From: an uncultured Alphaproteobacteria bacterium
GTDB lineage: Bacteria; Pseudomonadota; Alphaproteobacteria; HIMB59; GCA-002718135
Assembly (NCBI GenBank): GCA_902522015.1
Contig: CABYTX010000001.1
Span: 5,003 to 69,002, forward strand
Direction of reading: 5' to 3'
Length of the DNA: 64,000 nucleotides
The notes under the pieces were generated by a model. That model was not told where the DNA came from. It did no database searches and saw nothing but the letters and a program-made list of their open reading frames with translations. Within the stretch, counting starts at the first letter, position 1. Every line of letters begins with the position of its first letter. Position numbers and translations under genes: made by a program. Below are positions 110 to 22,994 of this stretch, piece after piece.

Positions 110-1213
110 ATGACAATAGTTAATTCTTGGAATGAATGGGATCCATTAAAGCATGTTATAGTTGGAGCAGTTGAAAATGCCAACATACCTCCAATGGAAC
201 CAGCGCTTGAGCCGAAAATTAGTAAAGATAGTGGTATGGCAGGATCTCACGGACCACGTTCAAAAGAGTCAATTGATAAAGCAAATATACAATTAGAAAA
301 CTTTGTTAAAATTTTAAATTCTCTAAATATAAAAGTTGATAGACCAACACCAATTGACTTTTCTCAGAGTATCGAGACGCCCGATTGGTCTAATGATGGT
401 ATGTTTGGTTGTATGCCTCCAAGAGATGTTATTCTCACTGTAGGAAATGAAATGCTGGAAGCACCAATGTCTTATAGATGTAGATGGTTTGAGTATCTTG
501 CCTATAGACCTTTACTTGAAAAATATTATTCAGAAGATAAAAATATGAGATGGGAATCGGCACCTAAACCAAGATTAACAAATCAATCTTATAAGTCTAA
601 TTATCTTCCTGAAGGCATAACGGAAGAAGAACGATATAAAAAAATCGAAAATAGAGACATGATATTGACAGAAAAAGAACCACTTTTTGATGCAGCAGAA
701 ATTTTACGCTTTGGAAAAGATCTTTTTTATCATAACAATTTTACATCAAATTTAAGCGGTTTAGATTGGTTAAGAAGACATTATCCCAATCATCGCGTTC
801 ATCAAATTAATTTACCAGGTGATTTAATTCCAACTCACATAGATGCATGTTTTACTCCTATTAAACCAGGAGTTATAATCATTAATCCGAATAGAAAAAT
901 ATCATCAGAGCAAAGAAAAATTTTCGATGATAATAAATGGGAAATTCATGAGGCAGCACCTTCCATTCATAATAGTCCACCACCTATGTGTTATTCATCA
1001 ATCTGGTTATCAATGAACGTTTTGATAATTGATCCTAAAACTATATGTGTTGAAGCAACTGAAGAAAAAATGATTAAACAAATGGAAAGTTTTGGATTGG
1101 ATGTTATTCCAGTTCCTTTTAGGGACGTTTATGCATTTGGGGGTAGTTTACATTGTGCCACTACTGATGTTCATAGAGAGGGTGAGTGTGAGGATTATTT
1201 TCCAAATCAATAA
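110..1213 (+). CDS. Amidinotransferase family protein (L-arginine:glycine / inosamine-phosphate amidinotransferase-like)
   Basis: 367-aa ORF. The N-terminal 'NSWNEWDPLKHVIVG' and C-terminal 'GGSLHCATTDV' (putative catalytic Cys) match my recollection of the AGAT/StrB1 family. No search run. Confidence 0.7.
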   Translation: MTIVNSWNEWDPLKHVIVGAVENANIPPMEPALEPKISKDSGMAGSHGPRSKESIDKANIQLENFVKILNSLNIKVDRPTPIDFSQSIETPDWSNDGMFGCMPPRDVILTVGNEMLEAPMSYRCRWFEYLAYRPLLEKYYSEDKNMRWESAPKPRLTNQSYKSNYLPEGITEEERYKKIENRDMILTEKEPLFDAAEILRFGKDLFYHNNFTSNLSGLDWLRRHYPNHRVHQINLPGDLIPTHIDACFTPIKPGVIIINPNRKISSEQRKIFDDNKWEIHEAAPSIHNSPPPMCYSSIWLSMNVLIIDPKTICVEATEEKMIKQMESFGLDVIPVPFRDVYAFGGSLHCATTDVHREGECEDYFPNQ

Positions 1214-1968
1214 TGTATAGTTTTAATCAAAATAACGTTAAGGCCAATTTACATGATACAAAATTTTCTAGAATTGGTGTAATTACACTATCGACTGATT
1301 TTACAATTGAGCAAGATTTTAGAAAAATTTGTCATAATTTACCAGTTGACCTATTTTTTAATAGGATACCTTTTTTAAATCCTCTAACTCATGAAAATTA
1401 TATAAAGATGGCTGATCATCTTACAGAAATAACAAATCAAATATTACCCAATGAGAAAATACAAGTTGTAGCGTATGGATGTACTTCGGGCACTATTGAA
1501 ATTGGTGAAAAAAGAATAAGATCTGAAATCTTCAAAGCTAAACCTGATGCTTTAATTACCACACCTATTACATCAGCTGTCAAAGCACTTAAATTGTTAA
1601 ATCATAAAAAAATTGCTGTTCTTACCCCTTATCCAAAAGAAGTGAATATTAAAGTTTACAAATATTTAATTGATAGTGGATTTGAAATTAAATCATTTAC
1701 TTCGTTTAATTTAAATTATGACTCCGAAATTGCCAAAGTTACTCATGATAGTTTAATACAAACAATTTCCTCAATTGATTTAACAGATGTTGATAGTATT
1801 TTTGTTTCTTGTACTGCATTAAAAATAATTGATATTATCGAAGAATTAGAGTCAAAATTAGGCACAGATATCATTTCAAGTAATCAAGCTATTATTTGGG
1901 ATTCATTAAGATTGTCTAATATTAATCAAAAAATTGATGGTTATGGTAACCTATTTAAATTACATTAA
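1213..1968 (+). CDS. Asp/Glu/hydantoin racemase superfamily protein (maleate isomerase / arylmalonate decarboxylase-like, EutA-like)
   Basis: 251 aa with two Cys motifs, 'YGCTSGT' and 'VSCTALK', typical of this fold. The start overlaps the upstream stop by 1 nt (TAATG). First gene of an EutA-B-C-like order. Confidence 0.65.
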   Translation: MYSFNQNNVKANLHDTKFSRIGVITLSTDFTIEQDFRKICHNLPVDLFFNRIPFLNPLTHENYIKMADHLTEITNQILPNEKIQVVAYGCTSGTIEIGEKRIRSEIFKAKPDALITTPITSAVKALKLLNHKKIAVLTPYPKEVNIKVYKYLIDSGFEIKSFTSFNLNYDSEIAKVTHDSLIQTISSIDLTDVDSIFVSCTALKIIDIIEELESKLGTDIISSNQAIIWDSLRLSNINQKIDGYGNLFKLH

Positions 1969-1980
1969 ATAGAGATTAAA

Positions 1981-2943
1981 TTGATTACACTTCAGCAAAT
2001 ACAAGATGCACATAAGAAAATTTTACCTTATGTTAATTATACACCATTAATTAATTCTAATTTTTTATCAAAAAGTAATACAGTAAAACTAAAGTTAGAA
2101 AATTTTCAAATCACTGGATCATTTAAGTTAAGAGGCGCGGTTAATAAGCTTCTTTCTTTAAGTGAAGATGACAAGAACAAAGGAGTCATCGCAGTTTCTA
2201 CAGGCAATCATGGCAAAGGTGTTGCTTATGCTTCAAAGGTATTGGGTATTCAATCAACAATATATATGTCTTCAATGGTTCCAGAATATAGAAAAGAGGC
2301 TATTGAAAAATTAGGAGCAAAAGTAGAAATTATTGGAAAGAATAGTGATGAAGCTGATTTTCATGCTAAACAAATTGCGAAAGAAAAAAATATCCCATTA
2401 ATTCACCCCTTTGATGATGAAGACATTATTATAGGCCAAGGTACAGTTGGGCTTGAAATGCTTACTGAATATCCTGAAGTTGATACTGTAATTATACCAA
2501 CATCTGGTGGCGGTCTTATATCTGGAATAGCACAAGCTATTAAACTTCAAAAACCTGACACAAAAATTATTGCCGTATCTATGGAAAGAGGTCCTTCAAT
2601 GTATGAAAGTCTAAAAAAAGGCAGACCTGTTGATGTAGAGGAAATTGAAACTTTAGCTGATTGTCTAGGGGGGAGTATTGGTCTAGATAATAAATTTACC
2701 TTTAATATTGTACAAAAATACGTTGATGACTTTGTTTTAGTAAGTGAAGAAAAAATAGCTGAGGGAATTAGAATAAATTTTTTAGAACATAAAATTGTAT
2801 CTGAAGGTGCTGCAGCAACAAGTGTAATGGTTGTTAAAGAAAAACTAACATCACACTTAGGAAAAAATATAATTTGTTTAATTTGTGGTGGAAATATTGA
2901 CTCGGAACTATTTAATAAAGTTTTAAGCCATGCTCATCCTTAA
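1981..2943 (+). CDS. PLP-dependent threonine/serine dehydratase family protein (EutB-like)
   Basis: 320 aa with the PLP-lysine motif 'TGSFKLRGA' and the glycine loop 'PTSGGGLISG'. TTG start. Confidence 0.8.
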   Translation: MITLQQIQDAHKKILPYVNYTPLINSNFLSKSNTVKLKLENFQITGSFKLRGAVNKLLSLSEDDKNKGVIAVSTGNHGKGVAYASKVLGIQSTIYMSSMVPEYRKEAIEKLGAKVEIIGKNSDEADFHAKQIAKEKNIPLIHPFDDEDIIIGQGTVGLEMLTEYPEVDTVIIPTSGGGLISGIAQAIKLQKPDTKIIAVSMERGPSMYESLKKGRPVDVEEIETLADCLGGSIGLDNKFTFNIVQKYVDDFVLVSEEKIAEGIRINFLEHKIVSEGAAATSVMVVKEKLTSHLGKNIICLICGGNIDSELFNKVLSHAHP

Positions 2944-3904
2944 TAAAAATGATATTATTCAACATGTAGATTTGAATAAAAATCTCATTCCAATAATAGA
3001 AGACGCATTTAATAGTTTATCAAAGGGATTGGTAATGATGCCGCCTATAATGAGAATTGATATTGAAAAATATCATGGTGAATCAGATGTTAAAGCTGCA
3101 TACGTTGAAGGTCTTGATAGTTTTGCAATAAAAATTGCCTCAGGTTTTTTTGATAATCCAAAACTTGGTTTGCCATCTAGTAATGGACTGATGGTTTTAT
3201 TAGATTCAAAGACTGGAGTTGTAAAATCTGTTTTATTAGATGAAGGTTATCTTACAGATACTAGAACAGCTATAGCAGGAGCAATAGCTACAAAATATTT
3301 ATCAAATGAAAATGCTAATTCCGTTGGTATTGTTGGGGCTGGAATTCAAGCCAAATTACAACTTCAAGCAATAATGTTAGTTAGAAAAATCAATAAAATT
3401 ATAGTCTGGGCAAGAGATGAGACAAAAGCGAACCAATTTATAGAAAGTTTCAAAAATTTAGATATAGATTTGTATGTAGCTTCTTCTTGTAAAGAATTGG
3501 CAAGCTTATCTGAAATAATTGTTACGACTACTCCTAGTAAAAAACCGCTTTTGGAATTTGATTGGATAAATAAAGGAACTCACATAACAGCAATGGGATC
3601 AGATGCAGAACAAAAAAATGAATTAGACCCTCATATGATAAAACATTGCGATCAATATGTGCCTGACAATCAATTACAAACAAGTGTTTTGGGTGAATTA
3701 CATCATGCTTTAAAACAAAATATAATTTCTTCCAAAGAAAAATTTAATGAACTTGGCGATATTATTAACGATCCAAGATTAGGAAGAAAAAATAAAGAAG
3801 ATATAACGATATGTGATTTGACAGGAACTGGTGTACAAGATACTGCAATAGCAAGATTTGCTTATAATCTTTGTAAAAAAAATAATTTAGGCATCAATAT
3901 TTAA
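2930..3904 (+). CDS. Ornithine cyclodeaminase / mu-crystallin family protein (EutC-like)
   Basis: 324 aa with the Rossmann motif 'GIVGAGIQAK'. Family-typical length and N-terminus. 14-nt overlap with the upstream gene. Confidence 0.8.
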   Translation: MLILNKNDIIQHVDLNKNLIPIIEDAFNSLSKGLVMMPPIMRIDIEKYHGESDVKAAYVEGLDSFAIKIASGFFDNPKLGLPSSNGLMVLLDSKTGVVKSVLLDEGYLTDTRTAIAGAIATKYLSNENANSVGIVGAGIQAKLQLQAIMLVRKINKIIVWARDETKANQFIESFKNLDIDLYVASSCKELASLSEIIVTTTPSKKPLLEFDWINKGTHITAMGSDAEQKNELDPHMIKHCDQYVPDNQLQTSVLGELHHALKQNIISSKEKFNELGDIINDPRLGRKNKEDITICDLTGTGVQDTAIARFAYNLCKKNNLGINI

Positions 3905-3907
3905 TTT

Positions 3908-5350
3908 ATGAGTCAAGCAATAGTAAAAAAAACGTCTGATTATTTCAAATCAAAAGGAGTTGTCTTGCCAAGTATAAGTGAACTTCAAGATCCTCAAATT
4001 ATTAATGATGATATTAAAAATTCTCTAAAAAAAATAGATAATAATGATATCAATCCTCTTAACCTCTTTAGAGTTCATTGGTTTAATAAAAGAGATCAAT
4101 CAGGTTTTGGAAATGAGCCTGAATACATTGTGCTTCCAACAGAATTCACAGGTGTAAAGGCAAAGATAATTGTAAATATGGGACGATATTTTCCCTTAAT
4201 AACAGCTCATAAAGTTTTGGCAGCTTATGGTTGTTTGCTTCCAAGAATATTAAATGGCACTTTTGATTATGAAAAACATAAAGCAGTTTGGCCTTCTACA
4301 GGAAATTATTGTAGGGGCGGAGTAGCAATATCTCGGATAATGGGTCTTAATAGTATTGCAATACTTCCTGAAGGAATGAGTAATGAGAGATTTGAATGGT
4401 TGAATAATTGGGTTGAAGATAAAAAAAATATCATAAAGACAAAAGGCACAGAAAGTAATGTTAAAGAAATTTACGATGCTTGTAATGAATTAAAAAAAGA
4501 TAATCAAAATGATATCATAAATCAATTTGATGAGTATTATAATTACAGTATTCATCGTTCTATAACGGGTCCATCTTTTGAAAAATCATTTCTTAAAGTT
4601 AAAGGTAACAGCAATTTAACTCCTAGGTTTTATGTAAGTGCTTCAGGATCAAGCGGTACTCTAGCAGCAGGAGATTATCTTAAAGATAAATTACAGACAA
4701 AGATAGCAGTTGTTGAAGCTTTAGAGTGCCCAACTTTGCTCCATGGAGGTTATGGTGAACATAATATACAAGGAATTGGTGACAAACATGTTCCCCTTAT
4801 TCATAATGTAATGAATACAGATTTTGTGGTCGATGTTTCTGATCAAGCTACCAATAATCTAAATATGATTTTTAATACTGAAATAGGAAAAAATTTTTTA
4901 ATTGAGAAAAAAAATTTTGATCCTGATTTTGTTTCTCGTCTTCCTGAGTTTGGTTTTTCAGCAATAGCAAATATATTGGCTTCAATAAAGCTAGCTAAAT
5001 ATATGGATTTAAATAGTGATGACGCAATTATAACGGTTGCTACTGATGGTGCAGATTTATATATGTCAGAATTAAACAAGACCATTGCTGATTTTAAAAA
5101 TAATTATGATGAAATAGTTTGTGCTGAATTATTTGGACGACACTTATCAGGAGTATCTACTGATAATATGCTTGAACTCTCTCAAATGGATAAGAAAAGA
5201 ATATTTAATTTAGGTTACTTTACTTGGGTAGAGCAACAAGGTGTTAGTCTTGAAGAATTTGAAAAAAGAAAAGATCAAAAATTTTGGAATTCACATTATG
5301 ATTACATGCTTTCTCTAGACAATCAGATTAAAGAATTTAATAATATGTAG
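3908..5350 (+). CDS. Atypical long PLP-dependent fold-type II enzyme (Trp-synthase beta / cysteine synthase superfamily)
   Basis: 480 aa. 'LITAHKVLAAYG' is a candidate PLP lysine resembling the TrpB 'GAHK' motif. 'SASGSSGTLAAG' is a candidate phosphate-binding loop. The protein is about 130-180 aa longer than CysK/CysM. Confidence 0.5.
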   Translation: MSQAIVKKTSDYFKSKGVVLPSISELQDPQIINDDIKNSLKKIDNNDINPLNLFRVHWFNKRDQSGFGNEPEYIVLPTEFTGVKAKIIVNMGRYFPLITAHKVLAAYGCLLPRILNGTFDYEKHKAVWPSTGNYCRGGVAISRIMGLNSIAILPEGMSNERFEWLNNWVEDKKNIIKTKGTESNVKEIYDACNELKKDNQNDIINQFDEYYNYSIHRSITGPSFEKSFLKVKGNSNLTPRFYVSASGSSGTLAAGDYLKDKLQTKIAVVEALECPTLLHGGYGEHNIQGIGDKHVPLIHNVMNTDFVVDVSDQATNNLNMIFNTEIGKNFLIEKKNFDPDFVSRLPEFGFSAIANILASIKLAKYMDLNSDDAIITVATDGADLYMSELNKTIADFKNNYDEIVCAELFGRHLSGVSTDNMLELSQMDKKRIFNLGYFTWVEQQGVSLEEFEKRKDQKFWNSHYDYMLSLDNQIKEFNNM

Positions 5351-5353
5351 ATT

Positions 5354-6508
5354 ATGAAAACTCAGTCATTACATAACCAATTAGTAGAATGGCGTCATGA
5401 TCTTCATATGCACCCTCAAATAAGTTTTGAAGAAGAATATGCTGCTGCAAAAGTGTCAACACTTCTAAAAGAGTTTGGAATAGAAGTTCATTCTGGTATT
5501 GCCAGAACTGGAGTAGTTGGAATTTTAAAAAAAGGAAATAGCTCCAAATCAATAGGTATAAGAGCTGACATGGATGCTCTTCCTATAAATGAAACTAATA
5601 ATTTTAGTTATAAGTCAAAGTTTGATAACAGAATGCATGCATGTGGACATGATGGTCACACTACAATGTTATTAGGTGCAGCAAAATATTTATCAGAAAA
5701 AGGTAACTTTAACGGCACAGTATATTTTATTTTTCAGCCTGATGAAGAGAATACTTTTGGCGCAAGAACAATGATAGATGAAGGTTTGTTTGATAAGTTT
5801 AACATTGATGAAGTTTACGCTATGCACAATATTCCTAACATGGAAATTGGAACATTTGGCACTAGAAAAGGAGCAATCACAGCAAGTGAAAATTTATTTG
5901 AAATTGAAATAAAAGCCAAAGGTGGGCATGCTGCATTACCTCATATGGGCGTTGATGCAATAACTGTTGGCTCTCAAATAGCAGTAGCACTTCAATCTAT
6001 AGTCTCTAGGAAATTAAATCCAGCAGATAATGGTATAGTTTCTATCACTGAATTTATAACCGATGGTAAAAAAAACGTTCTGCCAGGTATGGTAAAAATG
6101 ACTGGTGATGCAAGAGCTTTATCAAAAGAAACAAATGAAAAAATTGCATCAAAAATGTTGCAAATTGTTGAGGGCATTTGCAATGCACATGGTGTTAATG
6201 GCAGTGTTAAATATGAAACAACCTGTCCTGTAACTTTTAATTCAAAAAACCAAACTGAGTCTGCAACAAAAGCTGCAGTTTCATTACTTGGAAACGATAA
6301 ATGTAACGGCGATATTGAACCGCGTTTATTCTCAGAAGATTTTTCAGTGATGGCAAATGAAAAACCTGGCTGCTTTGTTTTAATGGGTAACGGTACATCA
6401 GAGCAGCATTCTAGACCTTTACATGCTGATAATTACGATTTTAATGATGAATTATTAGTCATAGGTTCTTCATATTGGACTGAATTAGTAGAACAACAAT
6501 TAAAATAA
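5354..6508 (+). CDS. M20D family amidohydrolase (hippurate hydrolase / N-acyl-L-amino acid amidohydrolase-like)
   Basis: 384 aa with the hallmark 'MHACGHDGHT' motif and family-typical length. Confidence 0.8.
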   Translation: MKTQSLHNQLVEWRHDLHMHPQISFEEEYAAAKVSTLLKEFGIEVHSGIARTGVVGILKKGNSSKSIGIRADMDALPINETNNFSYKSKFDNRMHACGHDGHTTMLLGAAKYLSEKGNFNGTVYFIFQPDEENTFGARTMIDEGLFDKFNIDEVYAMHNIPNMEIGTFGTRKGAITASENLFEIEIKAKGGHAALPHMGVDAITVGSQIAVALQSIVSRKLNPADNGIVSITEFITDGKKNVLPGMVKMTGDARALSKETNEKIASKMLQIVEGICNAHGVNGSVKYETTCPVTFNSKNQTESATKAAVSLLGNDKCNGDIEPRLFSEDFSVMANEKPGCFVLMGNGTSEQHSRPLHADNYDFNDELLVIGSSYWTELVEQQLK

Positions 6509-7666
6509 ATGTTTTCTGAAAACTTAAATAAACTTAAGAAAAAAATGTCTGAGAATAATATTGATCTCTCAATTATAACAGATGATGACTCGATATATTA
6601 TTTTACAGGATATCATGACTTTCTTCATATGGATTTTAATCGACCAACATTATTAATTGTTTCAAATGATCATAAAACTTACTTAATTACACCTCTTCTT
6701 GATGTTTTATTAGTACCAGATGATTGTCCTGTGGATGCAATTGAAACATGGAATGATGGTATTGGAAATGAATGGAGAGAATTATTGCCTCAAATTATTA
6801 ATCAACATAAAAATATTTTTATTGAAAAATTTAAAATCAATCCAATGGTTAAAAGTTTTTTAGACGAATTACTTCAAGATCATCCTGGGGATTTAACCAA
6901 ATTAATAGATAATATAAGAATGATTAAATCTAATCATGAATTGAATATAGCTCGCCATGCCGGTGAAGTTGGTATGGCTATGATGGAGGCAGCAAAAAAA
7001 ACAATTGGCCATAATGTTCCTGAGTATGAGGTTGCACTTGCACAATCACAAGCTGGAACAAGAAAAGCTGCAGATCTTTTAAAAGAATTTTATCCTGATA
7101 ATATCAATATGTCTCCAAATATTCACTTTTTACCTGTTATGACATCGGGTCATGATTTACCTAAAACTCACCATCGTGCTTCAACCAAAATTATACAAAA
7201 AGGTGATCCCGTATTTGTGTGTTATTGTGGTTCTACAAATTTTCATAGGTTTAAATTAGGTTTTGACAGAATATTTTGGGTAGAAGAAATTCAATCCGAT
7301 GAACAAATAAAAGCTTTTGAGACTGCAGTTAAATCTCAAAAAGCTGCTCTTGAAATTCTTGGCCCTGGAGTAACAGCTGAAGAAGTTCATGCTGCTTATG
7401 CAGATACTATACAGTCTGAGGGATACCCTTATCCTACATTTCGATGTGGAAGAGGTACAGGCTTTAGCTTTTTAGAGGAACCACAATTAGTAGTTGGGAA
7501 CAAAACAGTTCTTGAGCCTGGAATGGTATTTGCTGTTGATGGCGGGGCAAGTGCAAATAATTTTAGATCACAAGTTGGTGATAGTTTTATTATAACAAAA
7601 GATGGATACGAACAAATTACCCATCATTCTAAAAATATTGATGATCTAATAATTCCACATGGATGA
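6509..7666 (+). CDS. M24 family protein (creatinase / Xaa-Pro peptidase fold), metal ligands apparently not conserved
   Basis: 385 aa with a creatinase_N-like N-terminus ('DLSIITDDDSIYYFTGY') and a pita-bread C-terminal domain. The start abuts the upstream stop. Confidence 0.7.
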   Translation: MFSENLNKLKKKMSENNIDLSIITDDDSIYYFTGYHDFLHMDFNRPTLLIVSNDHKTYLITPLLDVLLVPDDCPVDAIETWNDGIGNEWRELLPQIINQHKNIFIEKFKINPMVKSFLDELLQDHPGDLTKLIDNIRMIKSNHELNIARHAGEVGMAMMEAAKKTIGHNVPEYEVALAQSQAGTRKAADLLKEFYPDNINMSPNIHFLPVMTSGHDLPKTHHRASTKIIQKGDPVFVCYCGSTNFHRFKLGFDRIFWVEEIQSDEQIKAFETAVKSQKAALEILGPGVTAEEVHAAYADTIQSEGYPYPTFRCGRGTGFSFLEEPQLVVGNKTVLEPGMVFAVDGGASANNFRSQVGDSFIITKDGYEQITHHSKNIDDLIIPHG

Positions 7667-8684
7667 AATCACAGTATTTAACACACATTGCTGTGGTGAA
7701 ATTGGGGATGTCGTAACTGGAATTAAAGGTTTGAAATTTAATTCACCTGAGGAAGCTTCTAAAAAACTTTTTTTAGATAAAAAATGGAGAAATTTTTTTT
7801 TAAATGAACCTCGAGGAGGGGTCTTTAAACATTGTAATATTATTCTAGAACCTTCAAATAAAAATGCAGATGCTGGATTTGTCATTATGGAACCAGAAGA
7901 TAATCCTCCAATGAGCGGATCAAATGCAATTTGTGTAACAACAGTCTTATTAGAAAAAAATATTCTTCAAATGAAATATCCTAAAACCATGCTTACACTT
8001 GAAGCTCCCGGTGGTTTAATAAAAGTTGTTGCTGATTGTGAAAATAAGAAAGTTAAAAGTGTCACTTTAACTAATCTTGCCTGCTTCGCATATAAAATAG
8101 ATGTAGATTTAAAGACAAAAAATTACGGCACAATTAAAGTAAGTACCGCTTTTGGAGGTGACAGTTTTTTAATTTGTAATGCTAGTGATTTTAATCTTAA
8201 AATTGAACCAAAGAATGCAAATAAATTTGTAATTGTTGCCAAAGAATTATTGAAAGAAGCAAACGCATCTATAGGATTTGAACATCCTACTATTAAAGGA
8301 TTAGATTATCTTTCCTTTTGCCAATTTATTGAACCTTTAAAAAAAAATAATCAATCATTACTTACAGGATTAAATACAGTTGTTATACGACCTGGAAAAC
8401 TTGATCGCTCACCTTGTGGTACAGGCACTTCAGCAAGATTAGCAGTAATGAGAGAAAAAAATGAAATACAAATAAATGAAGAATTTATATCAAAGTCTAT
8501 TATAGGATCTACATTTAAAGCAAGTATTGAAAAGGAAATTACAATTAATAACAAAAATTGTATTATTCCAAAAATAACAGGCAGTGCATTTATTACTGGA
8601 AAACAAAGTTTATATATCGATAAGGATGATCCTTTTCCAGAAGGTTATAGATTAAATGACACATGGCCAGATTCATTAAGTTAA
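7659..8684 (+). CDS. Proline racemase / 4-hydroxyproline epimerase superfamily protein with a Ser/Cys catalytic pair
   Basis: 341 aa. 'DRSPCGTGTSARLA' is the second catalytic motif. The first motif reads 'PPMSGSNAI' instead of 'MCGH'. 8-nt overlap with the upstream gene. Confidence 0.8.
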   Translation: MDEITVFNTHCCGEIGDVVTGIKGLKFNSPEEASKKLFLDKKWRNFFLNEPRGGVFKHCNIILEPSNKNADAGFVIMEPEDNPPMSGSNAICVTTVLLEKNILQMKYPKTMLTLEAPGGLIKVVADCENKKVKSVTLTNLACFAYKIDVDLKTKNYGTIKVSTAFGGDSFLICNASDFNLKIEPKNANKFVIVAKELLKEANASIGFEHPTIKGLDYLSFCQFIEPLKKNNQSLLTGLNTVVIRPGKLDRSPCGTGTSARLAVMREKNEIQINEEFISKSIIGSTFKASIEKEITINNKNCIIPKITGSAFITGKQSLYIDKDDPFPEGYRLNDTWPDSLS

Positions 8685-8760
8685 CTGTGATTAAATAACA
8701 CTAGCATGGCGATTTAATTCATTTTACTTTCATCAACTATTCTAATAATTAATAAAACAA

Positions 8761-10026
8761 ATGACAAAATTTAATGCCTGGAATGTAATTAAAAACGGTT
8801 TAAACGGTCAGTCTTATTGGACTAGACAATGGCGTGATCCAGAACCAAAAAGTAGTTATGATGTTGTAATAATTGGAGGAGGTTTACACGGTCTTGCCAC
8901 AGCATATTATTTGGCAAAGAATCATAATATAAAAAATGTAGCTGTCTTAGAAAAAGGCTGGATTGGTGGAGGAAACGCTGGACGTAATACAACTATTGTA
9001 AGATCAAATTATATGATGCCAGGCAACCACGAATTTTATGAACATTCTTTAAAGTTATGGGAAAATTTAAGTCACGAATTAAATTATAATGTAATGTTTA
9101 GCCAACGAGCTCATGTCTCATTATTTCATAGCCCTGGTGCTAAAGATTCAGTTTCACGGATTTATAATATTATGCGACTCCATGGAACTGATGCAGAACT
9201 TTGGGATTTAAAAACTTTAAAGAAAAAAATTCCACATTTAAATTATCATAATTCTAGATTTCCAATACTTGGAGCTGCAGTTCAAAAAAGAGCAGGCAAT
9301 GCAAGACACGATGCAGTTGCATGGGGTTATGCAAGGGCTGCAGATACATTAGGTGTAGACATTCTGCAAAATTGTGAAGTTACAGGTTTTACAAGAAAGA
9401 ATGGAAATATTGAAAGTATTCAAACTTCAAGAGGAATTATAAAAGGAAAGAAAATAGGATTTGCTGTTGCAGGCAATACTTCAGTATTATGGCAAATGGC
9501 AGAATTAGGCAACCTGCCAATTGAGTCTCATAAACTACAAGCATTTGTATCTGAGGCTGTTAAGCCACTTCTAGATCAGGTTGTTGTTTACGGTGTAGGT
9601 GGTGCACATTTCTATATATCGCAATCAGATAAAGGAAGTATGGTGTTTGGTGGTGATCTTGACTGGTATAAATCATATGCTCAGAGAGGAAATCTTCCTA
9701 TGGTTCAAGATGTTGCCGAAGCCGCCATGGCAATATTTCCTTCACTTGGAAGAATAAGATTACTTCGTCATTGGGCAGGTGTTATGGACATGACAATGGA
9801 TGGATCATTTTTTATTTGTAAAACGCCAATATCTAATCTCTATTTAAATGCTGGTTGGAACTATGGGGGTTTTAAAGCAAGTCCAGCATCAGGTTGGTAT
9901 TTTGCTGACTTAATTGCAAATGAAAGCCCGCATAACTACGTGCAAAATCATAATTTAGAAAGATTTGAAAAAGGTATCAATATAGATGAACGTGGTGCAG
10001 GACCTGATCCGAAATTGCACGGTTAA
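8761..10026 (+). CDS. soxB: Sarcosine oxidase beta subunit
   Basis: 421 aa with the FAD motif 'DVVIIGGGLHGLATAYYLA'. It is followed by the canonical delta-alpha-gamma gene order. Confidence 0.9.
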   Translation: MTKFNAWNVIKNGLNGQSYWTRQWRDPEPKSSYDVVIIGGGLHGLATAYYLAKNHNIKNVAVLEKGWIGGGNAGRNTTIVRSNYMMPGNHEFYEHSLKLWENLSHELNYNVMFSQRAHVSLFHSPGAKDSVSRIYNIMRLHGTDAELWDLKTLKKKIPHLNYHNSRFPILGAAVQKRAGNARHDAVAWGYARAADTLGVDILQNCEVTGFTRKNGNIESIQTSRGIIKGKKIGFAVAGNTSVLWQMAELGNLPIESHKLQAFVSEAVKPLLDQVVVYGVGGAHFYISQSDKGSMVFGGDLDWYKSYAQRGNLPMVQDVAEAAMAIFPSLGRIRLLRHWAGVMDMTMDGSFFICKTPISNLYLNAGWNYGGFKASPASGWYFADLIANESPHNYVQNHNLERFEKGINIDERGAGPDPKLHG

Positions 10027-10311
10027 ATGATTAGAATCAATTGTCCTTATTGTGGTGAAAGAGATCATAGTGAATTTAGTTATGGAGGAGATGCAACAAT
10101 CAATTATCCTTCGTTAGATGCATCAGAGAAAGAATGGACTGAAGCTATATTTTTCAGAAAAAATATAAAAGGTTTTCAATTTGAAACATGGCATCATTCT
10201 AATGGATGTAGAATGTGGTTGGTAGTTGAACGTTCTACAGTCACTCATGAAATAAAAAGTGTCAAACCATGTCATCCGAACTTACAGAAGGTTGTAGAAA
10301 ATAATAAATGA
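10027..10311 (+). CDS. soxD: Sarcosine oxidase delta subunit
   Basis: 94 aa with 'INCPYCGERDHSEF' at the N-terminus, typical of SoxD. It abuts soxB and overlaps soxA by 4 nt. Confidence 0.85.
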   Translation: MIRINCPYCGERDHSEFSYGGDATINYPSLDASEKEWTEAIFFRKNIKGFQFETWHHSNGCRMWLVVERSTVTHEIKSVKPCHPNLQKVVENNK

Positions 10312-13265
10312 AAACAAGAAGATTAGATAATTATGGAAAAATTAATAGAGATAAAATTCTATCCTTTAGATGGGATAAAAAGAATTACAAAGGTTTTGAA
10401 GGAGATACTCTAGCATCAGCATTACTTGCAAATAATATTGGTATAGTTGGTAGAAGTTTTAAATATCATAGACCAAGAGGAATATTTTCTAGTGGAGTCG
10501 AAGAATCCGGCGCCTTAGTTACTATTGGTTCAAAAGATAGAAGAGATCCAAATGTAAGAGCAACAACACAAGAATTATATAATGGTTTGGAAGCAAGTGG
10601 TCAAAACGCATTCCCAAATGTAAATTTTGATCTAGCGGGAATAAATAATTACTTAGGTAGATTTTTTGCAGCTGGCTTTTATTATAAAACTTTTATGGGA
10701 ATACCTCCATTTGAATGGGGTAGAGGGACAGCTATATGGATGTTTTTCGAAAAGTTTATTAGAAAAGCGGCGGGAATGGGAAGTGCTTCTGAGTTACCTG
10801 ATCCAGATTCTTATGAACATGCTCATGATTTTTGTGATTTAATTGTTGTAGGATCAGGACCTGCTGGTGTTGCAGCTGCAATAGAGGCAGCAGAAAAAAA
10901 ATTAGATGTTATTTTAGTTGAGCAAGATAGTCTTGTTGGAGGAGATCAACTTGCAGAAAATAATTTTGATAACTCACGGATTAAAAATCAACTTGAAAAT
11001 CTAGGAATAAAAATAATGACTAGAACTACTGCGTTCGGACTATATGATAATTGTGTTGTTGGTTTATTAGAGAGAGTAACAGATCATATATCAGCACCAA
11101 ATGTAAACATTCCACGTCAAAGATTTTGGACTATTAGAGCAAAGCATATAATTGTTGGCGCTGGAGCAATTGAAAGACATATTGCATTTAATAATAATGA
11201 TATTCCTGGTGTAATGACTGTAAATGCATCAAAGCATTATTTGAATAGATATGGTGTATTAACAGGAAAAAGAATTGCGATAGCTACAAATAATGATTCT
11301 GTTTATGAAACAGCACAACAATTATCGGAAGCTGGAGCCAATGTAACTGTTCTTGACTCACGAACTAATCTTGAAATTGAAACAAATAAAAGTTTTGAAA
11401 TTAGAAAAGGGTATGTGCCTTATAATATTAATGGTTCAAAAAAAATTCATAGTTTAGATGTATCAAAAAGTGAAGATATAAATAAATCTGAAACTATAAA
11501 TTGTGATCAGGTTCTATTATCAGGCGGTTGGTCGCCTGCTGTACATTTGTTATCTCACAGGGGTGTAAGGCCTAAATGGGATTATAGCAATGCTTGTTTT
11601 TTACCGAGTGACTCAAAAGAAAATATTACAATGGTAGGTTCTTCTAGAGGTTTATGGAATAAAAATGATTGTATTGCTTCTGGGATAGCAGGAACTACAG
11701 ATGCGTTGAACCGTTTAGGTATTTCTAAAACAAATTATTTTTTCCCAAAACCTGGTGGATGGAAAAATCCCATACAACCACTTTATGAAGTAAAATATAA
11801 AAAATCTAGATCAAAAAGTTTTGTAGATTATCAACATGATGTAACGACAGATGACGTAAGACTCGCACATCGTGAAGGTTTCATTTCTGTAGAGCATCTT
11901 AAAAGATACACAACTTTAGGTATGGCAAACGATCAAGGAAAAATGGGAAATATCATTGGATTATCTTTAATGGCTGAACTTTTAAATAAAGAAATTCCAG
12001 AAGTTGGAACTACTGTTTTCAGACCTCCTTATACTCCTGTATCTATAGGTGCCTTAAGCGGAAGAAATGTTGGAAAACATTTTAGGCCGTTAAGAGTAAC
12101 ACCAATGCATCAATGGAATATTGATCATGGTGCAAAAATGATTGAAGTTGGATTGTATCAAAGACCTTGGTATTATCCCAAAGAAAATGAAACTTTAAGT
12201 GACTCTTATATAAGAGAAGCATCAACAGTAAGAAAAACAGTTGGAATTTGTGATATAACATCATTAGGCAAAATTGCTATTCAAGGACCAGACTCTTCCG
12301 AATTTTTAAATAGAATTTATTCGAATGGTTTTTCAAAACTACAAGTTGGAAAAGCTAGATACGGTATCATGTTGCGTGATGACGGTATTGTAATGGATGA
12401 TGGCACATCTTGGAGATTAGCAGAAAATGAATATTTTATGACGACGTCTACAGGTGAAGCTGCAAAAGTGATGTCATGGTTAGAAGAATTACTTCAAACT
12501 AGATGGACAAATCTTAATGTTAATGTGACTAGTGTTTCTGAACAATGGGCTGGCGTATCAATTGCAGGACCTAAATCTAGAGAAGTTCTCAATAATTGTG
12601 TCGATGATTCTTTGGTTGTAACTAATAATAACTTACCTTTTATGGGTGTTACTTCAACATTTCTTAAAGGTAATATTCCTTGTAGAATTGCAAGAATTAG
12701 TTTTTCTGGTGAATTAGCTTTTGAAGTTTATGTCAAATCAGATTTTGCCAATACAATGATGGACCTACTTTGGGAAAATGCAAAAAAATATGATGGATGT
12801 TTATATGGATTAGAAGCTTTAGGTGCACTTAGAGTTGAAAAAGGTCATGTAACAGCCGCTGAGCTTGATGGAAGAGTAACAATTGATGATGCAGGTTTAA
12901 GCAAAATGGCTTCTACAAAAAAATCATATATTGGAAGCGCAATGAGAAAACGAGGAGTATTAAAAAATAATGATCGAGAAATTCTAGTAGGTTTCTTTCC
13001 TACAAACTTAAAGGAAACTTTTAATGCTGGAACTATTGTCTGTGAAAAAAATAATATTAAAGGACAGGGTATCGGAAGAATTACCTCAGTTACTTATTCT
13101 CCTGAACTTGGACATTGGATTGGGTTAGGTTTTGTCAAAGGGGGTTTAGATAAATGGAAAGATACCAATTTAGTTGGGGCAGATCCTGTAAGAAATAAAC
13201 AAATGAATTTAAAAGTTGTTTCACCACATATGATTGATCCTAATGGAGAAAGAATGTATGCATAG
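10308..13265 (+). CDS. soxA: Sarcosine oxidase alpha subunit
   Basis: 985 aa with the dinucleotide motif 'DLIVVGSGPAGVAAA' and a C-terminal aminomethyltransferase (GcvT)-like region. Confidence 0.9.
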   Translation: MKTRRLDNYGKINRDKILSFRWDKKNYKGFEGDTLASALLANNIGIVGRSFKYHRPRGIFSSGVEESGALVTIGSKDRRDPNVRATTQELYNGLEASGQNAFPNVNFDLAGINNYLGRFFAAGFYYKTFMGIPPFEWGRGTAIWMFFEKFIRKAAGMGSASELPDPDSYEHAHDFCDLIVVGSGPAGVAAAIEAAEKKLDVILVEQDSLVGGDQLAENNFDNSRIKNQLENLGIKIMTRTTAFGLYDNCVVGLLERVTDHISAPNVNIPRQRFWTIRAKHIIVGAGAIERHIAFNNNDIPGVMTVNASKHYLNRYGVLTGKRIAIATNNDSVYETAQQLSEAGANVTVLDSRTNLEIETNKSFEIRKGYVPYNINGSKKIHSLDVSKSEDINKSETINCDQVLLSGGWSPAVHLLSHRGVRPKWDYSNACFLPSDSKENITMVGSSRGLWNKNDCIASGIAGTTDALNRLGISKTNYFFPKPGGWKNPIQPLYEVKYKKSRSKSFVDYQHDVTTDDVRLAHREGFISVEHLKRYTTLGMANDQGKMGNIIGLSLMAELLNKEIPEVGTTVFRPPYTPVSIGALSGRNVGKHFRPLRVTPMHQWNIDHGAKMIEVGLYQRPWYYPKENETLSDSYIREASTVRKTVGICDITSLGKIAIQGPDSSEFLNRIYSNGFSKLQVGKARYGIMLRDDGIVMDDGTSWRLAENEYFMTTSTGEAAKVMSWLEELLQTRWTNLNVNVTSVSEQWAGVSIAGPKSREVLNNCVDDSLVVTNNNLPFMGVTSTFLKGNIPCRIARISFSGELAFEVYVKSDFANTMMDLLWENAKKYDGCLYGLEALGALRVEKGHVTAAELDGRVTIDDAGLSKMASTKKSYIGSAMRKRGVLKNNDREILVGFFPTNLKETFNAGTIVCEKNNIKGQGIGRITSVTYSPELGHWIGLGFVKGGLDKWKDTNLVGADPVRNKQMNLKVVSPHMIDPNGERMYA

Positions 13266-13821
13266 ACATTCTGCACTAGAAACAATTTATAAGGTCGGAA
13301 AATATTCATCAAGTGAGAAACAATCTCTAACATTTAAAGAATTAAAAAGTTTAGAAATTTTGCAAATTGCTTGTTGGCCTGACAAAATTGATGAAATGAA
13401 TAATTTACTATCAAAAGAACTAAAAATTAAAAATATTCCTAGTTTTAATAAAGGGATAATTTTTGAAAATAAATCATTATGGAGAATGGAACCTTTGAAA
13501 TGGTGGTTATTTAATAAAGAAATTGAAATAAGTGAGCAAATCGCAACAATTTTAGACATGTCTCATGCTTTCACAGGTATTGAAATTACAGGAGATAATT
13601 CATCATTATTTTTAAATAGACATCTTCCAATTGATTTAAGAGCTAGAAAATTTCCAGATCTATCTTCTGCTAGCACAGCCATTCATCATGTCAGTGTTAA
13701 GTTATTTAAAATATCCTCTAATAATTACTGTCTATATATGCCAAGAGGTTTTGCCTTATCAATTTGGGAGATCCTTCTTGAAACAGCAGATCAGTTTGGA
13801 TATGAAGTATTAGAGAGATAA
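13258..13821 (+). CDS. soxG: Sarcosine oxidase gamma subunit
   Basis: Called from its position after soxA and its size (~187 aa). I prefer the ATG at 13258 ('MHRHSALE', 8-nt overlap with soxA) over the TTG at 13234 given in the ORF track. Start uncertain. Confidence 0.7.
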   Translation: MHRHSALETIYKVGKYSSSEKQSLTFKELKSLEILQIACWPDKIDEMNNLLSKELKIKNIPSFNKGIIFENKSLWRMEPLKWWLFNKEIEISEQIATILDMSHAFTGIEITGDNSSLFLNRHLPIDLRARKFPDLSSASTAIHHVSVKLFKISSNNYCLYMPRGFALSIWEILLETADQFGYEVLER

Positions 13822-13840
13822 AGAGATTATCTAAAAAATT

Positions 13841-15016
13841 ATGATTTTTTCACAAGAAGAATTTAATTCAAGAATTGCAAAAGTAAAACAGTCTATGAAT
13901 AAAAGAGGTGTTGATATTCTATTAACTACTGATCCCTCTAATATGAATTATCTAACTGGCTATGATGGATGGTCATTTTATGTTCCACAAGGAGTAATAA
14001 TTTCTATAGATGAAGATCAACCATTTTGGTTTGGAAGAAAGCAAGATTCGAATGGTGCAAGGATTACAACTTTTTTAAATGAAGAAAATATATTTGGTTA
14101 TCCTGAGCGACTTATTCAATCACCACCATTACATCCATATGATTACGTAGTTAAATTATTTAAAGACAAAAATTGGTCAAGTAAAAATATTGGCGTTGAA
14201 ATGGATAGCTATTATTATACTGCAGAAAATCATAGGAGATTAAAAGATAATTTAACGAATGCTAAATTTATTAATGCACATCTTCTAATTAATTGGGTAA
14301 GATATGTAAAATCTAAAAATGAAATAAAATTTATGAAAGATGCTGGCACACTTGTGAAAGCAGGAATGACAACAGCATTTGATTCAATAAAAGAAGGTGT
14401 AAAACAAAGTTTAGTTGCAGGAAAAATTCAAAATACTCTAATTGCTGGAAATGATTCAACACAAATTGGAGGAGAATATTCAGGTTTAGGTATAATACTT
14501 GCAAGTGGGAGATCAGCATCAGCATCACACTTAACTCCTAGTGATAAAAAATTTGAAAATAATGAAGGAACAATTATTGAATTAGGTGGTGTGAAACATC
14601 GTTATCACTGTGCCTTATCCAGAACTGTATATGTTGGTAAACCTGATCCAAAGATATCGGATACATTAAAAATAACAAATGAAGGTATTGAGAAAGCTTT
14701 AGAACAGACAAACCCAGGAAATAGTTGTCATAATGTTGCAGTTGCTTTTTGGTCAGTATTAGAAAAATATGGATTAGAAAAAGAATCAAGAGCTGGCTAC
14801 TCAATTGGTATTGGTTATCCTCCTGATTGGGGGGAACACACACTTAGTATCCGGAAAAATGAAAAGACACTTTTAGAACCTAATGTTACTTTTCATCTTA
14901 TGTGTGGAATGTGGATGGATACGTGGGGATTAGAACTAAGTGAGTCAGTTAGAGTAACAGAGAGAGGTTACGAGTTACTTACTCAAGTCCCAAGAGATTT
15001 GCATTTAGTAAATTAA
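13841..15016 (+). CDS. Ectoine hydrolase-like M24 protein (DoeA/EutD-like)
   Basis: 391 aa. 'DPSNMNYLTGYDGWSFYV', 'RYHCALSRT' and 'GYPPDWGEHT' match my recollection of DoeA/EutD sequences. No search run. Confidence 0.75.
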   Translation: MIFSQEEFNSRIAKVKQSMNKRGVDILLTTDPSNMNYLTGYDGWSFYVPQGVIISIDEDQPFWFGRKQDSNGARITTFLNEENIFGYPERLIQSPPLHPYDYVVKLFKDKNWSSKNIGVEMDSYYYTAENHRRLKDNLTNAKFINAHLLINWVRYVKSKNEIKFMKDAGTLVKAGMTTAFDSIKEGVKQSLVAGKIQNTLIAGNDSTQIGGEYSGLGIILASGRSASASHLTPSDKKFENNEGTIIELGGVKHRYHCALSRTVYVGKPDPKISDTLKITNEGIEKALEQTNPGNSCHNVAVAFWSVLEKYGLEKESRAGYSIGIGYPPDWGEHTLSIRKNEKTLLEPNVTFHLMCGMWMDTWGLELSESVRVTERGYELLTQVPRDLHLVN

Positions 15017-19264: not shown

Positions 19265-19329
19265 TTTTTAAATTAACTTTTGACTATTTGTTTTCATGCA
19301 GTTATTCAAGCTTCATTACAAAATATATT

Positions 19330-20418: not shown

Positions 20419-20537
20419 ATCTATTTTTTTATCGGTATTTGGCCAAAATTTTTTATTTTTACCTCTTTTTTTTCATTTAACGACATGTTATTACACCACC
20501 ATTACGGACATAATCTTAAGATTAAATAATTAAAAAT

Positions 20538-20543: not shown

Positions 20544-20549
20544 ATATAT

Positions 20550-22991: not shown

Positions 22992-22994
22992 CAA

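Follow-up and report, generated by a model that had tools for sequence, protein, structure and literature searches.

A diverged, modular ectoine-type gene set on a conserved core in a 13-gene SAR11 array

The described systems closest to the gene array reported here are the canonical ehu-eut clusters, as in S. medicae, and the doeABCD genes of Halomonas elongata. Parts of the array also have counterparts in the beta-hydroxyaspartate cycle (BhcB and BhcD), in creatinase (EC 3.5.3.3; PDB 1CHM) with the sarcosine oxidase TSOX (2GAG, 1VRQ), and in hydroxyproline-catabolic systems. The activity of EutD is held to require its partner EutE, so that both are needed, and not even for R. pomeroyi has the enzymology of EutABC been worked out (PMC8739950). 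The array lies at positions 110–15016 of a 64,000-nt stretch of contig CABYTX010000001.1 (assembly GCA_902522015.1; hereafter the window), from an uncultured Alphaproteobacteria bacterium of the GTDB lineage HIMB59, GCA-002718135. It is a diverged, modular ectoine-type gene set in which the hydrolase and the deacylase are optional, and there is no sign of a new principle. We interpret it, with a probability of roughly 0.45, as a modular multi-substrate operon in which an ectoine accessory module sits on a conserved core. In the first-pass annotation of the window, the array had been said to match no known pathway; in agreement with this, our literature search found no publication assigning it and none linking Pelagibacter with an amidinotransferase.

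Thirteen open reading frames (ORFs) on the plus strand fill the array (∼15 kb; G+C content of the window ∼30%). Proteins that match those of the window exactly or nearly so carry the NCBI name 'Pelagibacteraceae bacterium', which places the window in SAR11. Family assignments were made with Pfam, NCBIfam equivalog cut-offs and phmmer searches against the PDB. The ORF scan of the window took in products of ≥80 aa over the first 20 kb; from there to 50.7 kb, where it ended, the minimum length was 100 aa. The features, including those that use pyridoxal phosphate (PLP) or belong to the ornithine cyclodeaminase (OCD) family, are as follows:

1–109, no strand: upstream control region, common to the array and a divergent GabD/Ssd-type aldehyde dehydrogenase; AGGA 12 nt before the ATG at 110
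110–1213, plus strand: AGAT-type pentein-fold amidinotransferase, 367 aa (phmmer against PDB, 1JDW/1JDX)
1213–1968, plus strand: EutA-like Asp/Glu-racemase/Amdase-family protein, 251 aa (PF17645 Amdase)
1981–2943, plus strand: EutB-like PLP enzyme of the threonine-dehydratase family, 320 aa (PALP domain)
2930–3904, plus strand: EutC-like NAD(P) enzyme of the OCD/mu-crystallin family, 324 aa (PF02423)
3908–5350, plus strand: PLP480, a fold-type-II PLP enzyme, 480 aa (weak PALP/CysK matches, AlphaFold2 model)
5354–6508, plus strand: M20D amidohydrolase, 384 aa (TIGR01891, 322 bits, cut-off 154)
6509–7666, plus strand: M24a, a non-metallo M24 'pita-bread' hydrolase with Creatinase_N, 385 aa (profile match to 1CHM)
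7659–8684, plus strand: ProRac, a proline-racemase-superfamily enzyme, 341 aa (PF05544, 326 bits)
8761–10026, plus strand: SoxB-type beta subunit (TIGR01373, 606 bits, cut-off 529)
10027–10311, plus strand: SoxD-type delta subunit (TIGR01374, 104 bits, cut-off 116.5)
10308–13265, plus strand: SoxA-type alpha subunit with GcvT-like folate-binding domain (TIGR01372, 1166.8 bits, cut-off 1164)
13234–13821, plus strand: SoxG-type gamma subunit, start codon uncertain (TIGR01375, 50 bits, cut-off 144)
13841–15016, plus strand: DoeA/EutD-family M24 protein, 391 aa (TIGR02993, 6TWK)

The 13-gene, one-strand, overlap-coupled layout given by the first-pass annotation was reproduced in its ORFs, strand, overlaps and all coordinates, and its family calls (AGAT, EutA/B/C, PLP, M20D, M24, Pro_racemase, SoxBDAG and DoeA-like) mostly hold in Pfam, NCBIfam and PDB searches. 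Also borne out, in the scanned window ORFs up to 50.7 kb, was the absence of an Ehu/Ueh transporter, of a deacetylase of the EutE/DoeB fold and of DoeD. Neighboring genes overlap by 1 nt (at 1213), 14 nt (2930–2943), 8 nt (7659–7666) and 4 nt (10308–10311), and the longest SoxG ORF, which has a TTG start, adds a 32-nt overlap with SoxA. The widest intergenic gap, 76 nt (8685–8760), precedes soxB. No Rfam element or riboswitch was found in the array at E ≤ 0.1, and no terminator-like site was found within any of its gaps in a promoter/terminator scan, in which such sites were rarer than in shuffled sequence, making the scan uninformative.

The array is not a chance juxtaposition, since other SAR11 genomes and contigs carry the whole of it at this locus, with protein identities of 54–100%. 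The site itself (rplQ ... mgtE ... bioY-glk-aldehyde dehydrogenase) is kept in lineages that are 54–87% identical (L090, L014). AGAT, EutA, EutB, EutC, PLP480, M24a, ProRac and SoxBDAG were present in every array seen. DoeA is removed by a clean deletion (window positions 13833–14948, the last ∼68 nt remaining) in a single-cell genome with 96% DNA identity (L015), and M20D and DoeA are both absent from L096/L097, where a second aldehyde dehydrogenase lies between eutC and PLP480. M20D stands beside PLP480 and M24a in L095, L093, L027, L037 and L044, and L093 and L095 carry a further EutA-like gene after M24a. MarineAlpha5_Bin9 (L014:14811-15900) has an insertion between ProRac and soxB that encodes a DUF4396 membrane protein and a DsbA-like protein of the thioredoxin fold. 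The EutC/PLP480 junction holds nothing in the window, a BisC fragment in L093 and the extra aldehyde dehydrogenase in L096. From this pattern of presence and absence, we read DoeA and M20D, together with Ehu, as an accessory ectoine module on a conserved core. The focus on ectoine in the first-pass annotation stands as far as Eut/Doe family membership is concerned; however, the ectoine genes do not form the core, as DoeA and M20D are dispensable (L015, L096/L097).

Linkage to a transporter was found in a sister lineage. In the SAR11-like contig L095 (30% G+C, PLP480 76% identical), the gene order is BisC-EhuA-EhuB-EhuC-EhuD-PLP480-M20D-M24a-EutA2-ProRac, and EhuA (391 bits, cut-off 345), EhuB (291 bits, cut-off 191) and EhuC (236 bits, cut-off 197) all exceed their equivalog cut-offs. 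This EhuB has S. meliloti EhuB as its best PDB match (2Q88, 53% identity) and keeps E21, Y60 and R85, with Tyr in place of F24 and F80; Glu21, the aromatic residues 24, 60 and 80, and Arg85 are those that we take to bind ectoine. An orphan binding protein, SAR11_1068, neighbors soxBDAG in HTCC1062, and a link to it was considered; no close Pu1068 structure was among the PDB matches of the L095 binding protein. In SAR11, an Ehu binding protein has been reported only for HTCC7211 (PMC3686209). In L093 and L094, AGAT-EutABC is followed by the N-terminal half of a BisC-type molybdoenzyme and then by PLP480. These arrangements, pieced together from several contigs, no single one of which holds the full arrangement, are consistent with a longer ancestral cluster with BisC-EhuABCD between eutC and the PLP gene that was lost in the window lineage. 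The description of the ectoine pathway as split and incomplete is correct within the window, but reflects in part the window edge (an Ssd/DoeC gene lies upstream) and in part lineage loss (EhuABCD is present in L095).

The EutA-like protein scores 216 bits against TIGR02990 (EutA, cut-off 318). The best NCBIfam matches of the EutB-like protein are two EutB models (378 and 350 bits, under cut-offs of 413), and the EutC-like protein scores 416 bits against TIGR02992 (EutC, cut-off 472) and 456 bits against NF006141 ('cyclodeaminase', over its cut-off of 408). Models of BhcD and of pyrroline-2-carboxylate (Pyr2C) reductase are weaker relatives of the EutC-like protein, which is probably an imine reductase, and the BhcB family is related to the EutB-like protein. 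Among plasmid records with EutA, EutB and EutC homologues (581, 1268 and 1149, respectively), ranked by tblastn, the best matches of the EutA-like protein are annotated eutA by the Prokaryotic Genome Annotation Pipeline (PGAP; 37–39% identity), the top matches of the EutB-like protein are all annotated eutB (46–47%) and those of the EutC-like protein are annotated eutC (50–52%). Against S. medicae pSMED01, the window proteins line up in the order ehuA-ehuB-...-eutA-eutB-eutC-M24, with identities of 36, 43, 51 and 46% to EutA, EutB, EutC and M24 (46.5% for M24), and the A-B-C order of Amdase, threonine-dehydratase and OCD families is the same there and on a Leisingera plasmid. The correspondence to the eutABCDE module that the first-pass annotation drew from the EutA-EutB-EutC order agrees with both the order and the best matches. 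Judged from their sequences, the Eut-like and DoeA-like proteins are diverged Eut/Doe family members and not random paralogues.

Like the canonical ehu-eut clusters, the array has a DoeA/EutD-family hydrolase further downstream of eutA-eutB-eutC, an Ssd-class aldehyde dehydrogenase adjoins it, and EhuABCD lies within the cluster, but in the sister SAR11-like lineage. Unlike them, it has no EutE, Atf/DoeD transaminase, EnuR, AsnC or Usp genes, ∼10 kb of other genes lie between eutABC and the hydrolase, and AGAT, PLP480, M20D, M24a, ProRac and SoxBDAG are extra. The beta-hydroxyaspartate cycle, in which BhcB acts as a dehydratase and BhcD as an imine reductase, likewise pairs a threonine-dehydratase-family PLP enzyme with an OCD-family reductase. 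However, the BhcB and BhcD models match the array proteins at 211 and 184 bits, far under their cut-offs of 550 and 500, the array is without BhcA and BhcC, and in place of hydroxyaspartate, a diamino or some other hydroxy amino acid would presumably be its substrate.

The DoeA-like protein combines PF00557 with PF01321 (M24 fold with Creatinase_N) and aligns over its full length with H. elongata DoeA (6TWK; E 3e-108, residues 3–388, 43% identity). The five former metal-ligand positions read E/A/Y/M/S in the DoeA-like protein, E/P/Y/M/T in 6TWK, D/D/H/E/E in prolidase and C/G/R/D/G in M24a. The 6TWK match and the DoeA-type residues at the ex-metal positions back the earlier assignment of this ORF to DoeA/EutD, and its best plasmid matches are M24 genes within canonical ehuABCD-eutABCD clusters. 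The protein would be predicted to open the ring of ectoine or hydroxyectoine. In contrast to doeABCD of H. elongata, the array is without DoeB and DoeD, its candidate DoeC is divergent, and the DoeA-like protein scores 461.5 bits against TIGR02993, under the cut-off of 613. No EutE/DoeB partner (succinylglutamate-desuccinylase fold) stands beside it in the scanned window ORFs. The M20D protein is a candidate N-acyl-diamino-acid deacylase and an accessory gene. NCBIfam includes an M20D-type 2,4-diaminobutyrate (DABA) deacetylase, DoeB2, against which the array M20D scores 315 bits, far under the cut-off of 550; it scores 318 bits against CpsA (cut-off 500). That M20D could be a substitute deacetylase, as proposed in the first-pass annotation, is indirectly favored by the joint absence of M20D and DoeA from L096/L097, but not by the missed DoeB2 cut-off.

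The amidinotransferase at the head of the array has no Pfam or NCBIfam match, and in the PDB it matches human L-arginine:glycine amidinotransferase over its full length (1JDW/1JDX; E 3e-77) and also SxtG, HsvA and StrB1. AGAT residues C407, H303 and D254 align to Cys (LHCAT), His (PTHIDA) and Asp (FDAAE), so the catalytic set is complete. N300 and M302, which we take to lie in the specificity loop of glycine-using AGAT, are replaced by Ile and Thr. In the assembly collection, 388 indexed blocks contain the exact sequence of the array enzyme. A Photobacterium homologue is a stand-alone gene with an AraC regulator, an uninformative context. At loci L001-L006, whose AGAT protein is identical, the minus strand carries an Aldedh gene for a 483-aa product, mostly beyond the window edge and 43 nt before the AGAT start. 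It encodes a GabD/SSADH-type aldehyde dehydrogenase (TIGR01780, 729 bits, cut-off 646), the annotation class also carried by the Ssd/DoeC step of ectoine clusters. The absence of DoeC noted in the first-pass annotation therefore holds for the window itself but not for the locus, which has a DoeC/Ssd-type dehydrogenase divergently placed just outside. Five of these contigs (L001, L002 and L004-L006) are nanopore-derived '_pilon' contigs in which EutB, EutC, PLP480, rpoA and other genes are split into two to three ORFs, most likely by assembly frameshift errors and not as pseudogenes; M20D of L095 is split likewise.

M24a is related to creatinase without being its orthologue. The best PDB match of its family profile is P. 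putida creatinase (1CHM; E 3e-32, full length), with single-sequence E-values of 1e-15 (1CHM) and 6e-7 (7YTO). His232, Phe62 and Arg64 of creatinase are retained as H221, F43 and R45 and are invariant in orthologues, and Glu262 and Glu358 are replaced by Asp (D253, D344). However, Arg335 is replaced by Glu (E323) and His324 by Arg (R315), and His376 is deleted. In creatinase, His232 is presumably catalytic, Phe62 and Arg64 presumably form the carboxylate clamp, and Glu262 and Glu358 presumably hold the guanidinium group. Residues C/G/R/D/G at the metal-ligand positions are invariant in orthologues from SAR11, the metagenome-assembled genome (MAG) L027 and Boseongicola. Two assignments were rejected: a prolidase or metallopeptidase, by the loss of all five metal ligands, and an orthologous creatinase, by the residue changes and the ∼25% identity. 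The first-pass label 'creatinase-like M24' has to be narrowed accordingly, to a protein with ∼25% identity to real creatinases that is no metallopeptidase. The residues kept, including two acidic residues at the guanidinium site, point to a putative metal-free amidino/guanidino hydrolase that would bind a carboxylate and a delocalised cation.

In three non-SAR11 genomes (Roseovarius pelagicus, Aminobacter sp. SR38 and MAG L027), orthologues of M24a with 53–56% identity are the first genes of M24a-Amdase-SoxBDAG(-Rieske) operons. Beside these operons lie a LysR gene, the genes of an Ehu-like ABC transporter and an operon of M20D and diaminopropionate ammonia-lyase. The M24a-Sox association is conserved across three orders, with synteny of M24a and SoxBDAG in four lineages. 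In the Roseobacter and rhizobial clusters, the Ehu-like binding proteins are 21–27% identical to EhuB and have a Trp/Trp/Tyr cage and no Glu21. M24a and sox are always separated by an epimerase gene, which is of the Amdase type, ProRac or both; in a pathway from creatine through sarcosine, such a gene would be superfluous. The R. pelagicus plasmid (L102 1-20267), Aminobacter pSR3 (L103) and L027 share one uncharacterised cluster, composed of a GntR-regulated operon of M20D and diaminopropionate ammonia-lyase (with or without a metallo-M24 protein), an AsnC regulator with the Ehu-like ABC transporter, and a LysR-regulated M24a-Amdase-SoxBDAG-Rieske operon. The Roseovarius cluster adds a dimethylglycine-dehydrogenase-like gene. 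The binding proteins of the three clusters have an Arg in addition to the cage, and their permeases and ATPase are labelled Ehu by PGAP.

ProRac carries the motifs MSGSN and DRSPCGTG, which provide a Ser/Cys catalytic pair, and the Asn positioning Ser is present. Its nearest PDB structures are 4K8L (cluster 3, E 8e-102) and 1TM0 (E 1e-102), whereas the Ser/Cys structure 4LB0 is reached only at E 6e-61; against NF047722 it scores 413 bits, under the cut-off of 550. In the proline-racemase superfamily, a Ser/Thr pair marks 3-hydroxyproline dehydratases (cluster 3) and a Ser/Cys pair marks 4-hydroxyproline epimerases (cluster 9) (PMC4113996). For ProRac, epimerase chemistry is predicted to be more likely than that of a pure dehydratase, despite the higher similarity to the Ser/Thr cluster. 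A plain trans-3-hydroxyproline dehydratase was rejected because the pair is Ser/Cys instead of Cys/Thr or Ser/Thr, and the racemase-fold dehydratase suggested in the first-pass annotation is weakened by the same observation. As in hydroxyproline-catabolic systems, proline-racemase-superfamily and OCD-family enzymes share one operon, and the nearest structures of ProRac, 4K8L and 1TM0, come from a hydroxyproline cluster. Unlike in those systems, the pair is Ser/Cys where the relatives have Ser/Thr, genes of the DAAO (D-amino-acid oxidase) and DHDPS types are lacking, and the OCD-family gene is of EutC type, not LhpI type. By pure inference, 5-hydroxyectoine would resemble 3-hydroxyproline sterically, in its ring nitrogen, alpha-carboxylate and beta-hydroxyl.

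All four SoxBDAG subunits are present in beta-delta-alpha-gamma order. SoxD and SoxG are under their cut-offs, but order and sizes fit, and the SoxG position is kept in all arrays. The GcvT domain of SoxA spans residues 595–977. SoxB matches the TSOX beta subunits 2GAG_B and 1VRQ_B at E 1e-121 and is 75% identical to SoxB of MAG L027. SoxBDAG is predicted to be a member of the heterotetrameric, folate-linked N-methyl-amino-acid oxidase/dehydrogenase family. Within this family, TSOX and N-methylglutamate dehydrogenase (NMGDH) are easily confused (PMC13236597), and HTCC1062 carries two such sox-type operons (PMC3160333).

PLP480 has weak PALP and CysK matches only. Its AlphaFold2 model (predicted local distance difference test score 86, predicted template-modelling score 0.90) has a CysK/CBS-like core with N- and C-terminal helical extensions, and Foldseek ranks cysteine synthases, CBS, beta-cyanoalanine synthase and S-methylcysteine synthase highest among its matches (target-normalised template-modelling score ∼0.8). 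K102 is invariant, and the STGNY- and HNIQGIG-type motifs are so in 30 diverse members; we take STGNY to be the substrate loop and the HNIQGIG-type motif to be the CysK signature. From the model, PLP480 is predicted to be a beta-replacement or beta-elimination enzyme with extra terminal helices. No functional name was obtained from any source, including homologue searches with SAR11 and Roseobacter PLP480; the searches with PLP480 from either group, as well as those with the 554-aa protein described below, filled up with near-identical SAR11 sequences. In a genome scan, the family comprised at least 600 matched stretches from Proteobacteria, Actinobacteria, Chloroflexi, Acidobacteria and others. 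The commonest neighbors among 82 clustered loci were a xanthine dehydrogenase (XDH)-type molybdoenzyme (24) and a second PALP enzyme (22), and BisC-type molybdoenzymes and amino-acid ABC transporters are also usual. In Roseobacters (Phaeobacter, Nioella, L044), PLP480 lies between an Ehu-like ABC transporter and a BisC/TorA-family molybdoenzyme; on rhizobial plasmids, it lies near a TauE/SafE exporter and has no array partners.

Further observations concern the surroundings of PLP480. Among its loci from many phyla (L016-L089), those outside Alphaproteobacteria usually contain a second PALP protein of ∼468 aa, an XDH-family molybdoenzyme, an amidohydrolase, an OTCase-like gene and carbamate kinase, a gene set that recalls N-heterocycle degradation clusters. 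A cytoplasmic BisC/TorA-family molybdopterin S-/N-oxide reductase adjoins PLP480 at L044:11400-13736, L099:11463-13787, L100:11492-13789, L095:2-1006 and L093:6251-7441. One would not expect a molybdoenzyme of this kind in SAR11-like genomes, and it hints that the substrate of PLP480 is an oxidised sulfur or nitrogen compound.

Downstream of the array, the window encodes a DUF3726 protein (15013–15729, minus strand), an overlapping 554-aa protein with no known domain (15699–17363, minus strand) and a divergent M19 dipeptidase (17418–18404, plus strand). Homologues with 39–41% identity are found on Sulfitobacter and Shinella plasmids, in operons of the form LysR-aldehyde dehydrogenase-dipeptidase-(BCCT)-hypothetical-DUF3726. 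A homarine operon, homABCDER, described together with mgdABCD, which encodes NMGDH, has been reported in all Pelagibacter genomes (PMC13236597, Nat Microbiol 2026). By the published description only, the DUF3726 protein, the 554-aa protein and the dipeptidase fit HomA, HomB and HomC, and the NMGDH encoded by mgdABCD is a SoxBDAG look-alike. The hom-like genes lie on the opposite strand to the array and adjoin it only in the window lineage, in contrast to L090 and L096. After a PotA-type ABC transporter made up of ATPase, binding protein and two permeases, the region 19288–29384 encodes a DAO-family flavoenzyme, a pair of aldehyde dehydrogenases and a glutamine-synthetase-like protein, a set with the look of a gamma-glutamyl-polyamine (Puu-type) catabolic cluster. 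At 30540–50675, there is a long sugar/amino-sugar run with an altronate/galactarate-dehydratase-family gene, several GFO/IDH/MocA and short-chain dehydrogenases, a TauD-family dioxygenase, a GHMP kinase, a hexosaminidase of family GH20, a sugar ABC transporter, SIS-domain proteins, an NagA-like amidohydrolase, a GMC oxidoreductase and an enolase-superfamily gene. To our knowledge, this carbohydrate content is above that of classic SAR11 subgroup Ia genomes.

For the substrates and reactions of the modular, multi-substrate operon, we infer the following scheme. The array would be a conserved, probably co-transcribed catabolic operon of Pelagibacteraceae made up of several modules, with no single linear pathway. 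Its substrates would be several small zwitterions rich in nitrogen (cyclic amidines, guanidino and hydroxy-imino acids, and N-methyl amino acids), and its products would be glycine, proline/glutamate precursors, C4 amino acids, ammonia and one-carbon units. An invariant head would comprise the AGAT-type amidinotransferase and EutA/EutB/EutC. By likeness to BhcB/BhcD, EutB and EutC may convert a beta-hydroxy-alpha-amino acid to an imine and then reduce it, with net removal of the beta-hydroxyl; in canonical clusters, the proposed EutB/EutC substrate is 3-hydroxy-diaminobutyrate from hydroxyectoine, and EutA would set the stereochemistry. In the ectoine module, the DoeA-family protein would open the ring of ectoine or hydroxyectoine, M20D would replace EutE/DoeB, and EhuABCD would serve for import in the sister lineage. 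In the invariant module of M24a and SoxBDAG, M24a would free an N-methylated or secondary-amine amino acid, which the folate-linked Sox would demethylate. The Ser/Cys epimerase ProRac may act on hydroxyproline-type rings, and PLP480 may carry out a beta-replacement or beta-elimination. The semialdehyde that results would be oxidised by the divergent GabD/Ssd-type dehydrogenase.

Several observations weigh against this interpretation. The core persists where DoeA and M20D are absent, and the Eut-like trio may serve a substrate other than hydroxyectoine. The functions of the array enzymes are predictions from sequence, and EutA, EutB, EutC (TIGR02992), DoeA, M20D (against DoeB2) and ProRac all fall under NCBI equivalog cut-offs, so their substrates may be shifted. 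The window has no transporter in its scanned ORFs, and no DABA transaminase was found in them, which leaves the fate of DABA unexplained. The residues of the Roseobacter and rhizobial binding proteins suggest that their ligand is probably not ectoine but another solute. With an epimerase always between M24a and Sox, creatine and sarcosine, both achiral, fit poorly. SoxBDAG could also be an NMGDH for the adjacent hom-like genes. Tight packing, finally, is common in SAR11 and is no proof of a functional link. It is even conceivable, although we regard it as very unlikely, that the array is a by-product of genome streamlining, with unrelated catabolic genes packed together by intergenic deletion and sharing neither regulation nor logic. 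SAR11 genomes are extremely compact, the neighboring DNA carries other unrelated sets (hom-like and sugar genes, and a polyamine-type ABC transporter accompanied by puu-like ones), and the module boundaries are insertion/deletion hot spots. Packing alone, however, would not account for the maintenance of order and content between lineages that are only 54–87% identical, nor for the co-occurrence of same-family sub-sets in large-genome Alphaproteobacteria, which are free of packing pressure.

The opposite extreme, a single dedicated pathway, would line up all or most of the 13 products as consecutive steps on one as yet unidentified marine metabolite, for example a hydroxylated, N-methylated cyclic amidine or guanidine amino acid akin to ectoine: ring opening by M24a/DoeA, deacylation by M20D, removal of the amidino group by AGAT, of the hydroxyl by EutABC and of the methyl by Sox, and a final beta-elimination by PLP480. 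The location of overlapping genes on one strand with no internal terminators, and the maintenance of gene order across SAR11 lineages, would suit it. So would the clustering of M20D, two M24 proteins, EutA-like racemases, PALP, SoxBDAG and an Ehu-like transporter in L027, Roseovarius and Aminobacter, and the EhuB-type binding protein in the middle of the cluster in SAR11-like L095. It is unlikely, however: genes are lost or gained singly or in pairs while the rest are retained, the non-SAR11 clusters have no AGAT, EutB/EutC orthologues or DoeA and are divided into separate operons under GntR, AsnC and LysR, and no known metabolite requires all these chemistries. Somewhat unlikely, in our view, is that the array has no ectoine role, the Eut- and DoeA-like proteins being recruited paralogues in the salvage of hydroxyproline or hydroxy amino acids together with guanidino acids. 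AGAT and M24a would then act on guanidinoacetate, creatine or similar compounds and SoxBDAG would convert sarcosine to glycine, while ProRac and the OCD-family reductase would convert hydroxyprolines to proline and EutB would act on beta-hydroxy amino acids. All Eut/DoeA scores lie under their equivalog cut-offs, the core survives without DoeA and M20D, the scanned window ORFs include no ectoine transporter, AGAT is intact, and M24a keeps His232, Phe62, Arg64 and the acidic pair. Moreover, proline-racemase-superfamily enzymes are typically paired with OCD-family Pyr2C reductases (PMC4113996), and a 'creatinase' is listed as a core gene of SAR11 subgroup Ia, for which a conversion of creatine to glycine has been proposed (PMC3686209). 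Two couplings listed in the first-pass annotation, from the amidinotransferase through ornithine to proline and from creatinase through sarcosine to glycine, are neither borne out nor contradicted by these data. Against this stand the best homologues of the four Eut/DoeA-like proteins, which are members of genuine ehu-eut clusters that share the A-B-C order, the DoeA-specific active-site substitutions common to the array protein, and the bona fide EhuABCD within the cluster of the sister lineage L095. M24a, with ∼25% identity to creatinases and without Arg335, His324 and His376, also speaks against it, as does the epimerase for a chiral center that always lies between M24a and Sox. A more far-reaching idea is that the invariant core (AGAT, EutABC, PLP480, M24a, the Ser/Cys epimerase and SoxBDAG) is an undescribed pathway for an abundant, unrecognised marine solute imported by the Ehu family, in which the catabolic amidinotransferase together with M24a, and PLP480, would catalyze new reactions and ectoine would be only an add-on; we consider it doubtful.

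SAR11 is the most abundant heterotroph of the surface ocean and depends on external glycine and on reduced nitrogen and sulfur compounds. The array is very common: at 90% identity, the cluster of each array protein counts hundreds to thousands of metagenomic sequences. Ectoine, hydroxyectoine and related osmolytes are excreted by phytoplankton (PMC13012070). Juxtaposition of eutD and eutE was a requirement in published surveys of ectoine consumers (PMC8739950), which would therefore miss this arrangement. The loci with and without DoeA, M20D or EhuABCD offer natural variants for comparison, and the array highlights two enzyme families without known function, PLP480 and the metal-free M24a. If the modular, multi-substrate interpretation is true, the array would give SAR11 a route to ectoine, hydroxyectoine and related phytoplankton osmolytes.

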